Origin: Agriterribacter sp.
GTDB lineage: Bacteria > Bacteroidota > Bacteroidia > Chitinophagales > Chitinophagaceae
Direction: 5' to 3'
Length of the DNA: 64,000 bases
Assembly (NCBI GenBank): GCA_047601545.1
Contig: JASGIZ010000002.1
Location: forward strand, 1,838,656 to 1,902,655
Shown here: positions 23,993 to 56,554 of the stretch, one piece after another
Numbering within the stretch: position 1 is the stretch's first letter
How the letters are laid out: each line of letters begins with the position of its first letter
Program-made: the position numbers and the translations under genes
Notes under the pieces: model-generated
What the model was told of the DNA's origin: nothing
Databases searched by the model: none
The model's input: the letters and a program-made list of their open reading frames with translations, nothing else

Positions 23993-24112
23993 AGCAGGAT
24001 TAGAATTAGCTGCCCAATTTTTTTACCAACACCCGGCTGTTAATTAACTATGAAAAATGTACCTGCTTAAATATATTACATAAAAACATTTATCTTCGCC
24101 TTTTACGGCACA

Positions 24113-24169
24113 GGAAATGGTGTCTTCCTACTGAACCGCCCCGCTAAAGGCAGGGCTGATGGCGCCTAC
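24113..24169 (+). promoter_or_regulatory. Fluoride riboswitch (crcB motif)
   Basis: GGAAATGGTGTCTTCC...AACCGCC...GCTGATGGCGCCTAC fits the family pattern; directly upstream of a CLC-F gene. Confidence 0.92.
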
Positions 24170-24213
24170 AGATTATAAGCAATGTATTGCTGTATATACT
24201 ATAATTTGTAGGA

Positions 24214-32209: not shown

Positions 32210-33508
32210 TCAAAAGTGATTCAATACCTTCTGCATTTGCGCAACAATACCATCGTTGCTTAAATTGCCGATACTGCCTTCATGAGTATGATGTAATCGC
32301 TTTTTATAGTCAAAATTGAATTTGCCCTGCTCAATATCATTGCCCACCTGGCGGTAAGCGTCACGAAATGAAACGCCCTGGTTTACCAGTTCATTCACCG
32401 CTTCTACACTGAACAGGTATTTGTATTTTTCATCATCCAGTATATTATCCTTAATGCTGATGTTGGAGAGCATCAGTTTTGTCATTTGTATGCAGGCTTT
32501 CAACTCTTCAATAGCGGGAAATAAAATTTCTTTGGTCAACTGCATATCGCGGTGATAACCTGAAGGAAGATTATTAATAAGAAGCGTTAATTCATTAGGT
32601 GTAGATTGTATGCGGTTACATTTACCGCGGATCAGCTCAAATACATCCGGGTTTTTTTTGTGTGGCATAATGCTGCTGCCCGTAGTCAGCTCATTAGGAA
32701 AAGATATAAAACCGAAATTCTGGTTAATGTACAGGCAGGCGTCCATCGCCAGCTTGCTTAATGTGGCTGCCACGCTGCTGATGCCAATCGCTACAATTTT
32801 CTCCGTTTTACCTCTGCTCATCTGGGCGTATACGGAATTATAATTCAATGAACCGAAATGCAATAGTTCAGTGGTTAAAGCTCTGTTGAGTGGAAAAGAA
32901 GAGCCATAACCCGCGCCGCTGCCCAACGGGTTTTTGTTGGCCACATGATATGCGGCAGCAAGCAATTCCATATCATCCGTTAAGCTTTCTGCATATGCAC
33001 CAAACCACAATCCGAAAGATGAAGGCATCGCTATCTGTAGATGTGTATAGCCAGGTAATAATTTATCTTTAAATTTTTCGCCCTGGCTGATGAGCAAATC
33101 GAATAATGCCTTCACCTCATCTTTAATGGACAATACTTCTGCACGGAGATATAATTTTAAATCAACTGCTACCTGGTCGTTCCTGCTTCTGCCGCTATGA
33201 ATTTTTTTACCGGCTTCGCCTATACGTTGCGTTAAGAGATATTCCACCTGCGAATGCACATCTTCAATACCTTCTTCAATAGTAAATTTTGAATCCAGTA
33301 TATCATTTAAAATAGCTTCCAATCCTATTACCGCTTCTGCAGCATCTTTCTCATTCATCAGCCCAACTTCCTTCAGCATTTTTACATGTGCTATAGAACC
33401 CTGCACATCATATTGCGCCAGCAACAGGTCAAATTCTTTGTCTCTGCCTACGGTAAATTTTTCAATCAGTTCGTTTATGGAAGAATTGTCTTTTTGCCAG
33501 AGCTTCAT
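32210..33508 (-). CDS. argH: Argininosuccinate lyase
   Basis: EDVHSQVE, HSGRSRNDQ, LPGYTHLQ, TTGSSIMPHKKNPD. Start chosen at MKLWQK. Confidence 0.96.
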   Translation of the reverse strand: MKLWQKDNSSINELIEKFTVGRDKEFDLLLAQYDVQGSIAHVKMLKEVGLMNEKDAAEAVIGLEAILNDILDSKFTIEEGIEDVHSQVEYLLTQRIGEAGKKIHSGRSRNDQVAVDLKLYLRAEVLSIKDEVKALFDLLISQGEKFKDKLLPGYTHLQIAMPSSFGLWFGAYAESLTDDMELLAAAYHVANKNPLGSGAGYGSSFPLNRALTTELLHFGSLNYNSVYAQMSRGKTEKIVAIGISSVAATLSKLAMDACLYINQNFGFISFPNELTTGSSIMPHKKNPDVFELIRGKCNRIQSTPNELTLLINNLPSGYHRDMQLTKEILFPAIEELKACIQMTKLMLSNISIKDNILDDEKYKYLFSVEAVNELVNQGVSFRDAYRQVGNDIEQGKFNFDYKKRLHHTHEGSIGNLSNDGIVAQMQKVLNHF

Positions 33509-33611
33509 CTGCATTATATTTGTGGCTGCAAGATACAAGTTTAGCGGTAACGTGCCATTGTACTGCTTTTTTACCTGTTATTGCTGTCATCAATTACTAT
33601 ATATTATCAAC

Positions 33612-47383: not shown

Positions 47384-48472
47384 TTATAATACTTTTTTCA
47401 ATAGCTCACAGTATAATTGTATGCCCTGTTCTATTTCCTCCACAAAAATAAATTCATCCGCGGTATGGCTCCTGGCAGAATCGCCGGGGCCTATTTTAAG
47501 AGAAGTAAACGGGATAAGCGCTTTATCGGAAGTGGTTGGTGAGCCGTAATAAGTTCTTCCCAAATCAAGACCGGCTTTTACTATGGGATGATCGGGTGAT
47601 ATGGAAGAAGAACGCATTCTTAAACTCCTCGGTTGCGCATTACAGTTAGTATTGGCGTTAATAACATCAAGTATTTCTTCAAAAGTATATAATTCATTTA
47701 CTCTGATATCAACCACAAAAGAACAATGAGAGGGAACAACATTATGCGCTTTGTTTTCTGTGTTGATAACGGTAACGCTCATTTTAACCGGGCCCAGCAG
47801 GTCAGATACTTTGGGAAATGCAAATGAGCTGAACCACTGAATATCTTTTATGGCTTTATAAATAGCGTTCTCTCCTTCGTTGCGTGCGGCATGTCCGGCT
47901 TTACCGGTTGCGGTGCAATCAAGTACAAGCAATCCTTTTTCCGCAACTGCCATCTGCATTTGCGTGGGCTCGCCTACAATAGCAAAAGCCCAGTTTCTTT
48001 CCGAAGGATTAAACGCCGGTGTTTGAAATAATAATTCAACACCATCTTTTCCTGATATTTCTTCTTCAGCACTCGCTGCAAATACAATGTTATATGCAAG
48101 GTCAGGCTCATCGTAGAAATAAAGAAATGTTGCGGCCAGCGATACAAGACATCCGCCTGCATCATTACTCCCTAATCCGTATAACCTGCCATCTTTTTCA
48201 ATAGGCGTAAAAGGATCAAGCGTATAGCCTTTGTTAGGCTTTACTGTATCGTGGTGAGAGTTGAGTAGAATGGTGGGTTTGCCTTCATCAAAAAATTTAT
48301 TGGAGGCGTATACATTATTGCCAATGCGGAAATGCGGTATACCCTTTTTAGCAAAGAACAGGCACAATACACCCGCTGTTTGATCTTCTTCCTTACTGAA
48401 TGAAGGTATAGCGATCAATGCTTTCAGCAACTCAATGGCATCGGCTGTTAGTATAGCAAGGTCTTTATTCAT
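47384..48472 (-). CDS. argE: M20 family deacylase (ArgE-like; acyl-citrulline/ornithine deacylase)
   Basis: LNSHHDTV, GSNDAGG, AEEEISG, VGEPT, GHAA, RSHTADE; in arg cluster. Confidence 0.85.
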   Translation of the reverse strand: MNKDLAILTADAIELLKALIAIPSFSKEEDQTAGVLCLFFAKKGIPHFRIGNNVYASNKFFDEGKPTILLNSHHDTVKPNKGYTLDPFTPIEKDGRLYGLGSNDAGGCLVSLAATFLYFYDEPDLAYNIVFAASAEEEISGKDGVELLFQTPAFNPSERNWAFAIVGEPTQMQMAVAEKGLLVLDCTATGKAGHAARNEGENAIYKAIKDIQWFSSFAFPKVSDLLGPVKMSVTVINTENKAHNVVPSHCSFVVDIRVNELYTFEEILDVINANTNCNAQPRSLRMRSSSISPDHPIVKAGLDLGRTYYGSPTTSDKALIPFTSLKIGPGDSARSHTADEFIFVEEIEQGIQLYCELLKKVL

Positions 48473-49739
48473 TTACGATAGTTGTGCCGGCAGTGCCATT
48501 CATTAAAGAATATAGCACTTCAGCTTTGCCTATAATTACTTTTTTTACCCCACTGTTTAACGCGGCAAATGCGTTATCAAGTTTCGGTATCATACCGGCA
48601 AAAATTTTTCGTTCATCTTTCAGTTGTGCATAATACGCCGGGTTGATCTTACTGATAACGGTTTCATCATTATCCGCATCAAGCAGTACGCCGCTTTTTT
48701 CAAACGAATAGATCAGTGAAACATCATAATGTTTTGATAATGCTTTCGCGGTTTCCTGCGCAATGGTATCTGCATTGGTATTAAGCAATTGCCCGTTTTT
48801 ATCATGCGTGATGGGCGCTAATACTATGGTTGTTTTTTGTTGCAGTAATTGCTGAAGAAAATCAGCATTCACAGCATCCACATCGCCTGCAAAGCCATAG
48901 TCAATATTGTTTTTGCTGATGCGTTTGTGCGCCAGTATAGCATTACCGTCAGCGCCGCTTAGCCCGATAGCATTGCAGCCATTTGCCTGCAATTGCGCTA
49001 CAATATTTTTATTAATGTACCCGGCATACACCATTGTTACGATCTTTAGTGTCTCTGCGTCTGTAATCCTCCGGCCATCTACCATTTGCTGCTCAACGCC
49101 CATTTTTTCGGCAAGGCGGGTGGCGAGTTTGCCGCCGCCATGTACAAGTACAAATCCTCTATCCCCTGAAGGGGGATTTGTAAGTCCATTATTTTCTGCA
49201 GCAGCAAGTTGGGCAAATGATTGAAGGAAAGCCGATAGTTTTGCTTCGTCATTAATAATATTTCCACCAATCTTTACAACAAAAAGAGCTGGTTTTTCTT
49301 TTTTTGCCTGCTCACTTTTAATAGCGTCTATAGTTTTTGAAATAGTTGCCAATGTGGTTCCTAAATTTTGGATTATGTATTCGTTCTTGAATCTTATTAC
49401 ATGTAGTCCTAAACTTCTTAAATGTTCTTCCCTGATCTTGTCCTTCATTTTTACCTGCTCATCTTCATGTATTCCGCCATCAAGTTCTATAACAAGTTTA
49501 AGTGAATGACAATAGAAATCTGCAATATAGATAGCAATCGGGTGTTGTCTTCTGAATTTTACTTTCCATTCATTGATATGGATGTTTCTCCAAAGTAATT
49601 CTTCAGATGGAGTCATCCTGTTTCTTAATGCTTTTGCTCTTTCAAATATGAGGCTGTTCGCGCCATAAAACATGTTTTGTTTTTCGTTTTCATCAGTTAG
49701 CGGCGAATAAAATTGCTTATTTGCAAATTGTGTATTCAT
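48465..49739 (-). CDS. argB: DUF559 (Vsr-like very-short-patch endonuclease) fused in frame to acetylglutamate kinase
   Basis: Residues about 23-140: AKALRNRMTPSEELLW, KFRRQHPI, IADFYC, LVIELDGGIH, VIRFKNE. Then VVKIGGNII, LVHGGGK, LLNTNADTIA, GMIPKL. Confidence 0.9.
   Translation of the reverse strand: MNTQFANKQFYSPLTDENEKQNMFYGANSLIFERAKALRNRMTPSEELLWRNIHINEWKVKFRRQHPIAIYIADFYCHSLKLVIELDGGIHEDEQVKMKDKIREEHLRSLGLHVIRFKNEYIIQNLGTTLATISKTIDAIKSEQAKKEKPALFVVKIGGNIINDEAKLSAFLQSFAQLAAAENNGLTNPPSGDRGFVLVHGGGKLATRLAEKMGVEQQMVDGRRITDAETLKIVTMVYAGYINKNIVAQLQANGCNAIGLSGADGNAILAHKRISKNNIDYGFAGDVDAVNADFLQQLLQQKTTIVLAPITHDKNGQLLNTNADTIAQETAKALSKHYDVSLIYSFEKSGVLLDADNDETVISKINPAYYAQLKDERKIFAGMIPKLDNAFAALNSGVKKVIIGKAEVLYSLMNGTAGTTIVNE
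49155..49179. repeat. REP-like palindrome inside the argB reading frame
   Basis: CCTCT-ATCCCCTGAAGGGGGATT; encodes NPPSGDRG in an inserted loop. Confidence 0.7.
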
Positions 49740-54730: not shown

Positions 54731-55447
54731 CTACAGGTTAAAAAAGTAATGCAGTACTGCTTTCATATTTTTCCTGGAAGATTTTTCTTCTTTATCCTTT
54801 TTCAGGAAGGGCTGCAACAGCTTCCATTTTTTTATACGCATAAAGCGTTCGTACAACTTGGAGTGTTGTTGAAAATCTTCTTTTGTTTCTTCCGGTTCAT
54901 AATGGTCTTTTGGGTCGTACAACATGGCTGTGCAGAAGCAGTTCTTTCTTTCCTTGCTCATTAAGATGTCGTAGTTAACGCAACTTTTACAGCCGGCCCA
55001 AAAGGCTTCATCCTGTGTAAGCTCTGAGTAGGTTACGGGTTCGTATCCCAATTCTGAGTTTATCTTCATTACAGCAAGCCCTGTGGTAAGCCCGAATATT
55101 TTTGATTCAGGATACAATTTCCTGCTCAGTTCAAATATTTTTCTTTTTATGCCGCGGGCCAGTCCGCCTTTTCTAAAGGCAGGAGCTACAATCAAACCTG
55201 AATTTGCCACATATTCGCCATGTCCCCATGTTTCTATATAGCAAAATCCTGCCCAAATATCATCGTGGCTGAAAGCGATTACCGCTTTGCCTTCCCTCAT
55301 TTTCTGCTGTATATATTCGGGGCTTCTTTTGGCTATACCTGTTCCGCGGGCTTTTGCTGAAGAAGCCATTTCATCACATATAATTTGTGCAAAGTCGAGG
55401 TGACTTTCATTGGCAACGAGAATCTTAAATTGTTCCTGGGTTTTCAT
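54731..55447 (-). CDS. GNAT family N-acetyltransferase heading the arg operon (putative N-acylglutamate synthase)
   Basis: SAKARGTGIAKR, ANSGLIV, KIFGLTTGLAVMKINSELGY, FWAGCKSC; position in arg operon. Confidence 0.8.
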   Translation of the reverse strand: MKTQEQFKILVANESHLDFAQIICDEMASSAKARGTGIAKRSPEYIQQKMREGKAVIAFSHDDIWAGFCYIETWGHGEYVANSGLIVAPAFRKGGLARGIKRKIFELSRKLYPESKIFGLTTGLAVMKINSELGYEPVTYSELTQDEAFWAGCKSCVNYDILMSKERKNCFCTAMLYDPKDHYEPEETKEDFQQHSKLYERFMRIKKWKLLQPFLKKDKEEKSSRKNMKAVLHYFFNL

Positions 55448-55560
55448 TCTTTTAATGCTGATAAACTGAATATGATAGTACGTAAATCGGTTAATTTCCC
55501 GGCAGGCTTAATCAGGTTGCCGGCGTTATCTGTGATAACGATAAAATGTTGTTTCAGGTA

Positions 55561-55689
55561 TCAACGTCGTACCCTGAAGGGGATGGGTGGACAGAAAAAA
55601 ACTGCTCCAGGCAGAACAGGAAAAACCCCACGCAATGTAGCGACATTTTGTGCCGCGTCAGCGATTACTGTGGTGAGATTTTTTTGCAT
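55561..55689 (-). CDS. Putative arg operon leader peptide (42 aa, not in ORF track)
   Basis: Hand translation MQKNLTTVIADAAQNVATLRGVFPVLPGAVFFCPPIPFRVRR*; ends 113 nt before the GNAT ATG. Confidence 0.55.
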   Translation of the reverse strand: MQKNLTTVIADAAQNVATLRGVFPVLPGAVFFCPPIPFRVRR

Positions 55690-55795
55690 TTCAGTATGTC
55701 TATACTTTGATTAAAAATTTTGACGATGCAAAGAAAATACTTTTTTTAGTTGCAGGGGACTTTTTGAGGTAAAATTTTGATAACCAAATGTAAAA

Positions 55796-56554
55796 TTATA
55801 AGCGAACAGGCACGCTGTGAATGGCAGCGCTCATTTCCCGTATCAGTGAAGCGTCTTTTTCGATGGCATTACCTACCACAATAAGGTCGGCGCCGGCTTT
55901 ACAATTACGGTAAGCCTTTTCCGGGTCGCTTATACCACCACCTATAACCAGTGGCACATCTATAACCCCGGCAACCCTGGAAATCATGCTTTCCGTAATG
56001 CTTTTTTGCGCCCCGCTTCCGGCATCCATATAAATCAGCTTCATACCAAGCATTTCGCCTGCCATAGCCGTGCACATGGCTATTTCATTTTTGTTGGAAG
56101 GTATGGGCGTGGCATTGCTGATATAAGATACGGTTGTTGGCGCGCCACCATCAATTACCATATAACCGGTAGAAATAATTTCCAGCCCGCTTTTACGTAC
56201 TGCCGGGGCAGAAATAACGTGCTGCCCGATCAATAATTCGGGGTTTCGCCCCGAAATAAGCGAAAGATATAAAAGCGCATCGGCATGCGGCGTAATTTGA
56301 GAGGAAGTACCCGGGAAAAGTATAACAGGAATATTGCTCTGCTGTTTTATCTGCATTACCACTTCATCCAGGTGGTTGCTGATAACGAGACTACCGCCTA
56401 CCAGTAAATAATCAACTTCCGCCAGGGCGGTAAGCTCCACCAGTTCACTGATTTTCGCATCATCAACCTTATCGGGATCGATGAGTACCGCAAAAGACTT
56501 TTTCCCGGCTTTCTTTTTTTCTGCTATAGATTGATAAATGCGGTTGCTCGTCAT
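55796..56554 (-). CDS. pcrB: Geranylgeranylglyceryl/heptaprenylglyceryl phosphate synthase
   Basis: VLIDPDK, LVGGS, LFPG, LISGRNP, YMDAGSGA, GGGI, VVGN. Confidence 0.92.
   Translation of the reverse strand: MTSNRIYQSIAEKKKAGKKSFAVLIDPDKVDDAKISELVELTALAEVDYLLVGGSLVISNHLDEVVMQIKQQSNIPVILFPGTSSQITPHADALLYLSLISGRNPELLIGQHVISAPAVRKSGLEIISTGYMVIDGGAPTTVSYISNATPIPSNKNEIAMCTAMAGEMLGMKLIYMDAGSGAQKSITESMISRVAGVIDVPLVIGGGISDPEKAYRNCKAGADLIVVGNAIEKDASLIREMSAAIHSVPVRL

Follow-up and report, generated by a model that had tools for sequence, protein, structure and literature searches.

Control of arginine synthesis by the repressor ArgR is a textbook example, and leader-peptide attenuation is taught for the trp, his, leu, thr, ilv and phe operons. 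The locus investigated here, which lies in a stretch of 64,000 nucleotides from an Agriterribacter genome (hereafter the window), raises the question of how an arginine operon is regulated in a genome that encodes no such repressor. An earlier note on this DNA had remarked that the window contains no argR, and this observation holds and extends to the genome, to the family and to most of the class. No match to ArgR (PF01316, PF02863) was found in this 100%-complete genome, with detection in control genomes, and ArgR was absent from 200 of the 201 Chitinophagaceae genomes sampled as well as from 146 of the 151 Bacteroidia genomes sampled, PF02863 being present in the other five. In two of these five argR-bearing genomes of the class, argR is located directly upstream of the orthologue of the GNAT-like gene that opens the operon under study. 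Repression by ArgR at ARG boxes has the same physiological task and the same locus, but it works through a protein repressor, which is missing here, and a conserved leader with Arg codons occupies the exact position held by argR in the few ArgR-bearing genomes. We also observed that within a single family (f74) one genus carries argR beside the GNAT gene, and another carries a leader ending in two Arg codons and is devoid of ArgR.

All features of the leader locus are on the minus strand. The spacer upstream of the GNAT gene covers 348 nt (55795..55448), with a geranylgeranylglyceryl-phosphate-synthase-like gene (56554..55796, minus strand) as its 5' neighbour, and the GNAT-like gene itself, whose Pfam match falls below the cut-off, spans 54731..55447. 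The operon runs in the order GNAT-argG-cupin gene-argC-argD-argF'-DUF559-argB-argE and ends at 47384, where argF' denotes an N-acetylornithine carbamoyltransferase and argE an ArgE/DapE-type deacylase; it is truly an arginine-biosynthetic operon. The region in front of it is probably its leader, with a product whose role is to be translated and not to act as a protein. Within the operon, ArgB (49739..48465, minus strand) forms one continuous frame of 424 aa, in which DUF559 (endonuclease-like) takes up residues 33-138 and ArgB residues 153-403.

The leader contains an ORF of 42 codons plus TGA (55561..55689, minus strand; translation MQKNLTTVIADAAQNVATLRGVFPVLPGAVFFCPPIPFRVRR*), which the earlier note had singled out for its Arg-rich end. 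Its description was accurate, as the last codons read AGG GTA CGA CGT TGA and three of the last four sense codons are Arg, a single other Arg is present in the ORF (R20, CGT), and the GNAT ATG at 55447 lies 113 nt past the ORF stop. Conservation of this upstream ORF in relatives had been set as a test in advance, and an ORF was present at every related locus examined. The relatives were collected by a search with the GNAT protein, which gave 80 loci in Chitinophagaceae, 76-98% identical at the protein level, from genera such as Agriterribacter, Terrimonas, Niastella, Puia and Flavitalea; 78 of them were analysable and make, together with the window, 79 loci with 77 distinct sequences. An ORF of the same kind was found in 79/79 loci, ending 81-141 nt before the GNAT start, and its frame is open in 77/77 distinct sequences as against 3/77 and 15/77 for the other two frames, which is far beyond chance. 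The ORF lengths of 41-44 or 59-60 codons (126-183 nt) change by whole codons only. Two Puia loci (L074 and L077) carry an in-frame insertion of about 54 nt (16-17 codons), GC-rich and hairpin-forming, between the internal terminator described below and the Arg pair.

With regard to the content of the ORF, the N-terminal half showed no amino-acid conservation among the 77 sequences, and the best-conserved part is made up of the C-terminal 10 residues. The start codon stands in a conserved A-rich context; in Bacteroidota, initiation of translation does not depend on Shine-Dalgarno pairing. The nine-base stretch CGACGTTGA is the same in 79/79 loci, whereas neighbouring synonymous sites vary: GTA occurs 48 times and GTG 28 times, the Pro codon 55 uses CCA, CCT, CCC and CCG, and synonymous variation was noticed at several codons of the C-terminal part (54, 55, 57, 59 and 61). 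Such an invariant stretch amid variable synonymous sites, together with the kept frame, is the pattern expected of a translated leader in which specific codons are the critical content. Several of the seemingly conserved residues are in fact conserved nucleotides: codons 23 and 60 read nGG whatever is encoded (G, R or W, and R, W or V, respectively); much of the apparent peptide conservation is thus at the RNA level, and it is the conservation of the frame that supports translation. The PP motif, which the earlier note had linked to nascent-peptide stalling, turned out not to be conserved, the first-position Pro being present in 13/77 sequences with only P-x-P kept. The peptide has no Pfam match, and where gene callers annotate the ORF it is named 'hypothetical protein'. 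A second leader copy was not detected, as the genome is matched once by the peptide profile and once by the DNA pattern, and a classical His leader, sought in the same genome for comparison of design, yielded a spurious ORF only.

Upstream of the ORF, nearly all of the 77 orthologous regions share a conserved A/T-rich block, TCAAAATTTTACCTCAAAAAG (consensus AAAATTTCACATAAAAAA), at 55760..55780 on the minus strand, about 85 nt before the ATG of the ORF; this block may function as an UP element, or as the operator for an additional regulator acting beside the leader. It is followed by a promoter-like block, AAAAAAAGTATTTTCTTTGCA, at 55727..55747 (minus strand), with columns that are 90-100% conserved. 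Here TTTCTTTG (55736..55729) replaces the canonical Bacteroidetes -7 box, and two relatives have TACATTTG in its place. From this arrangement we infer a transcription start at about 55727.

The tandem codons CGA-CGU (55564..55569, minus strand) are invariant in 79/79 loci. CGA is the rarest Arg codon of the genome, with 4.2% of Arg codons or 1.7 per 1000, and CGU, CGC and CGA share one tRNA-Arg(ACG) gene. The inosine-modified form of this tRNA decodes all three codons, CGA through a weak I:A wobble. Since the pair joins the rarest codon, one tRNA for both positions and a weak wobble, CGA-CGU would respond sensitively to the charging of a single tRNA species, and the shortage of tRNA that the earlier note had offered as one way of sensing fits this choice of codons. 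The leader most likely lets ribosomes report arginine shortage, and we put a probability of roughly 0.7 on the reading that ribosomes stall at CGA-CGU in arginine shortage, thereby raising expression of the operon. As the last two sense codons, CGA-CGU would act as the sensor of charged tRNA-Arg(ICG). Under arginine shortage the ribosome would wait on the pair, and with an ample supply it would reach UGA and leave; whether the ribosome stays or leaves would then set operon expression and take the role that ArgR has elsewhere. We infer translation, stalling, the sign of the regulation and each step of its output from comparative sequence analysis.

The earlier note had drawn a stem, UUCAGGGUA/UACCUGAA, with CGA-CGU-UGA in its loop; this stem occurs in this genome only, with no more than GUR...UAC kept in relatives, and it is absent from the MFE fold. 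The two further stems that it had described, CGTTATC/GATAACG (55540..55524) and CCGGCA/TGCCGG (55523..55499), are present in the MFE fold, and these two spacer hairpins (55499..55540, minus strand) stand at the H1/H2 position of most relatives. Three hairpins, H1-H3, follow the stop codon in most clades, and H1 was 73% paired in relatives in comparison with at most 36% in slid controls. As the mixed spacer alignment combined two classes of H1, RNAalifold predicted no pairs in it, and named helices were counted instead. In no clade was a U-tract found after the spacer hairpins, or an intrinsic terminator between the ORF stop and the GNAT gene. The lack of a U-tract terminator asserted earlier consequently stands for the region downstream of the ORF and fails inside the ORF, where a hairpin (55619..55602) is followed by seven U.

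The first 30 nt after the stop contain 31% C and 10-14% G, and the last third of the ORF 34% C and 21% G. The genome encodes Rho (PF07497, 124.5 bits, in a 554-aa frame). A Rho-dependent output is favoured by the spacer without a U-tract terminator, by this C-rich and G-poor tract, by the encoded Rho and by the covarying hairpin with its U-run inside the ORF, and, given stalling as the sensor, we propose it tentatively. Rho would enter at the C-rich, G-poor stretch around the stop. A ribosome parked on CGA-CGU would mask this stretch and permit read-through, as TnaC does at the tna operon, and a released ribosome would expose it, upon which Rho would terminate transcription in the 113-nt spacer. 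The tract is not an ideal entry site, as it is short and followed by hairpins that make up much of the spacer, and in the variant leaders, with a C/G of about 1.7, it is less pronounced.

The same sensor could instead act through refolding of the RNA, which we consider unlikely, though less so than the other alternatives. The UGA stop (55561..55563, minus strand) and the following UAC are part of a possible 5-bp helix, UGAUAC:GURUC, that competes with H1 in most relatives; a held ribosome would block this helix and let H1 form, and upon release the alternative fold would alter initiation at the GNAT gene or expose an RNase site, in the manner of ermC-type translational attenuation or of stability control. 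The helix is mutually exclusive with H1 and was paired in 76% of cells as against 23-58% in slid controls, and the 'bulge' base of H1 is a purine in 44/49 cases and could pair with the U of UGAUAC. Among other Chitinophagaceae, the leaders of type II display a highly conserved long hairpin, CUGAUAGGACGAGC…GCCCCUAUCAG, which holds the leader stop codon in its 5' arm, and the GNAT genes behind types II and III (L099-L117) apparently start with a weak GTG or TTG. Against this, the 5-bp helix is weak, and no covariation test is possible for it since one of its sides is invariant. The search for a conserved '3:4' partner of the H1 3' arm, by folding without the 5' arm, gave no consistent downstream partner or terminator. 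Pairing of the ORF tail (GUR-CGA-CGU-UGA-UAC) with the GNAT initiation region was no better than that of shuffled sequences (mean -6.1 against -6.4 kcal/mol, with -6.9 for mid-spacer), and in most loci the 40 nt ahead of the GNAT start seem to be free of structure.

Inside the ORF, various RNA elements were recognized. The leader of 281 nt folds better than its shuffles (z = -2.98, MFE). Directly 3' of the start codon lies segment A, AAAAAUCUCAC (55673..55683, minus strand), an A-run plus CUCAC, which can pair with segment B, GUGGGGUUUUU (55621..55631, minus strand), the first internal U-run with its preceding GUGGG, which overlaps the CGU codon 20 (55632..55630). All 53 distinct combinations of A and B allow a duplex of -8 to -16 kcal/mol, and compensating variants occur among them (CCU/AGG, for example); RNAalifold predicted the duplex in the MKKN clade. 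Synonymous sites of segment B are frozen (CGT in 73/77, nGG regardless of the amino acid, KTT TTT), and both internal U-runs of the 77 sequences read KTT-TTT and RTT-TTT and never TTC. The U5 tract of the first run (55625..55621) precedes hairpin C (55619..55602, 7 bp), and U7 (55601..55595) follows it; the whole element (55595..55619, minus strand) was flagged by the terminator scan. Six stem pairs of hairpin C are 91-100% paired among 54 distinct sequences with several compensatory pair types, and further sequence variants were seen in the 31 family genomes that carry the DNA pattern. It resembles the gene-end terminators of its own genome, where hairpin-plus-T5 motifs occur at 0.26 per kb behind long ORFs and at 0.017 per kb inside them. 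This 15-fold rarity inside ORFs marks hairpin C and U7 as a genuine terminator-like or pause element within a reading frame. It was also noticed that strict hairpin-plus-T5 terminators stand behind only about 3% of the long ORFs of the genome (80/2550), so that most genes must end transcription otherwise.

Because this element lies upstream of CGA-CGU, the sensor codons cannot control it. This speaks against the main reading, as does the prospect that a stall at the conserved CGU codon 20 would promote termination there. Together with the proposed stalling at the Arg pair, hairpin C and U7 would serve as a pause or termination checkpoint that only polymerases closely trailed by a translating ribosome pass, which would make the later, ribosome-dependent decision meaningful. 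The checkpoint may alternatively be the only regulated step, with the terminal Arg codons secondary, and this we judge to be quite improbable. In the pyrBI operon of E. coli, a leader ORF of about 44 codons (pyrL) runs through an intrinsic terminator after U-rich pause tracts, read-through needs a close ribosome, and the signal is UTP-dependent pausing of the polymerase. The present layout is alike, with a terminator-like hairpin and U7 inside an ORF of about 43 codons, downstream of a second U-run, the U5 tract; the hairpin covaries strongly, a hairpin with a U-run recurs in all clades and also in other families, and its sequence varies freely, which leaves no room for a third RNA partner and only ribosomes or proteins as possible modulators. 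However, the operon here makes arginine, and slow decoding of the conserved CGU codon 20 would favour termination at U7 and lower expression in arginine shortage, the wrong sign for a biosynthetic operon. Such a mechanism also leaves the most conserved feature, the invariant CGA-CGU by the stop, unexplained at 24 nt beyond the terminator, and two loci tolerate the 54-nt insertion that places the pair 75 nt beyond it.

Just 5' of the Arg pair, a CCC-UUCA-GGG mini-hairpin motif (55572..55581, minus strand) was found, with codon 58 as CCC in 70/77 sequences and codon 60 as nGG for R, W or V. The 15-mer CCCCTTCAGGG had been suspected earlier of resembling a REP; it is not a repeat insertion, as CCC-N4-GGG is kept at this place in orthologous leaders. 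A REP origin was also rejected on searching the genome, where the 348-nt spacer has one full match and other matches are at most 27 nt long with E > 0.1, and within the window no other site matches the 15-mer with fewer than two mismatches.

As to distribution, leaders of the window's type (…VRR*) were found with the DNA pattern in about 31 of the 201 family genomes. Variants were sought in the GNAT upstream regions of 20 family genomes without the pattern, one of which still has a VRR* peptide. All 20 carry an ORF of 21-50 codons, often with a TTG start, that ends 103-150 nt before the GNAT gene, and all 20 harbor a tandem CGA-CGN with 2-7 Arg codons and ends such as PRPRRGC*, RRRPVF* and RPxRRPRI*. 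Beyond the family, 8-9 of 20 other Bacteroidia families (20 genomes) showed ORFs ending in …FFPRR*, …SRRA* or …NRR* at 113-144 nt upstream. In the variants the RR pair stands 1-3 codons from the stop, which may be TAA or TAG, so the common denominator is the codons and not adjacency to the stop. With variants in the family and in other families, the element belongs to a set of Arg-codon leaders that has diversified and is spread over the class. At the locus, the only Rfam match at E <= 10 was a chance snoRNA on the opposite strand (E = 5.1), and 13 variant leaders gave no Rfam match at E <= 1.

These variants bear on two further explanations. The nascent peptide …RPxP[FV]xVRR might sense free arginine in the exit tunnel and arrest the ribosome at UGA when arginine is high, lowering downstream expression like the fungal attenuator peptide. 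The conserved C-terminal end, encoded by several synonymously variable codons, and the Arg pair that abuts an invariant UGA in the window's leader type would suit it, but the displaced RR pairs and alternative stops of the variants and the fixed synonymous positions of CGA-CGT speak for codon identity, and a parked bacterial ribosome usually raises downstream expression, again the wrong sign; we regard it as very improbable. Least probable of all is an incidental ORF, whether in an untranslated structured leader or a small RNA ending at the internal terminator and perhaps bound by protein, or as the gene of a functional small protein, since strong RNA-level constraints, a terminator-like element about 95 nt past the ATG that could release a short RNA, an upstream block that could be an operator and the annotation as 'hypothetical protein' are outweighed by a single frame kept open over 126-183 nt behind an A-rich start, by terminal Arg codons recurring in unrelated leader variants, by the missing Rfam and Pfam matches and, for a protein, by the unconserved N-terminal half.

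The Arg-codon leader shares with trpL, hisL, pheL, leuL, thrL and ilvL of Proteobacteria a short, conserved ORF before an amino-acid operon, with cognate codons near its end and amid conserved hairpins. It differs from these classical attenuators in being specific for arginine and in having no intrinsic terminator after the control codons, so that their defining feature fails; no 1:2/2:3/3:4 set could be demonstrated, the terminator-like hairpin and U-run precede the control codons within the ORF, which at 42-44 codons exceeds the classical leaders in length and has only 2-3 terminal Arg codons. The likeness in layout to TnaC/tna, mgtL, corL and speFL/orf34 (PMC8429421, PMC6386406) consists of a stall site, here a proposed one, at or beside the leader stop, a spacer of about 100-200 nt that has no intrinsic terminator, a C-rich tract by the stop and the presence of Rho. 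Unlike in these tna-type systems, the proposed stall is caused by uncharged tRNA-Arg and not by a small molecule in the exit tunnel, the genes are arginine-biosynthetic, and Rho dependence here is hypothetical.

Sensing by Arg codons has experimental precedent in the leader orf34 of Salmonella speF, which uses consecutive Arg codons (PMC6386406), and in rbfL of S. aureus, a leader peptide shown experimentally to sense arginine limitation via a rare Arg codon and a scarce tRNA (PMC13009471). The latter differs in that it extends over the ribosome-binding site of a biofilm regulator, which it represses on stalling, has no link to arginine synthesis and is unrelated in sequence and layout (PMC13009471). 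For arginine-biosynthesis operons such a precedent was not found, and a full-text literature search, including PMC4833913 and PMC13009471, gave no description of an Arg-codon leader of a bacterial operon of this kind, although absence there is no proof. The fungal arginine attenuator peptide (CPA1/arg-2 uORF) is likewise a conserved uORF before an arginine-pathway gene with a ribosome event at its end, but it is eukaryotic, its peptide senses free arginine and blocks scanning, the codons are not the signal, and the sequences are not similar.

It is possible, and we offer it as a conjecture that is less likely than not, that most Bacteroidia, being without ArgR, control arginine synthesis by ancient and diversified leader peptides of this kind, which could be called 'argL'. 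These would combine pairing of the A-rich start with the U-run, an intrinsic terminator in the ORF as a checkpoint for ribosome-coupled polymerases, and a rare CGA-CGN pair near the stop that decides without a downstream intrinsic terminator, a new attenuation logic that would be the main arginine sensor of the class. If confirmed, the leader would explain the regulation of arginine synthesis in a large class of ecological importance, would bring arginine into the group of amino acids for which ribosome stalling serves as the sensor, and would provide a compact genetic switch that responds to arginine, for use in Bacteroidota. With a terminator inside the ORF, the way in which transcription and translation are coupled in Bacteroidota becomes directly testable.

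Elsewhere in the window, argH (33538..32210, minus strand) lies about 14 kb from the operon and is divergent from a PLP-enzyme gene over a short spacer. No Arg-codon leader was found at argH, so that the control proposed here is not common to all arginine genes, a point that counts against it. Finally, the Rfam scan of the whole window disclosed a fluoride riboswitch (RF01734) at 24104-24175 on the plus strand, with 53.8 bits against a gathering score of 34.
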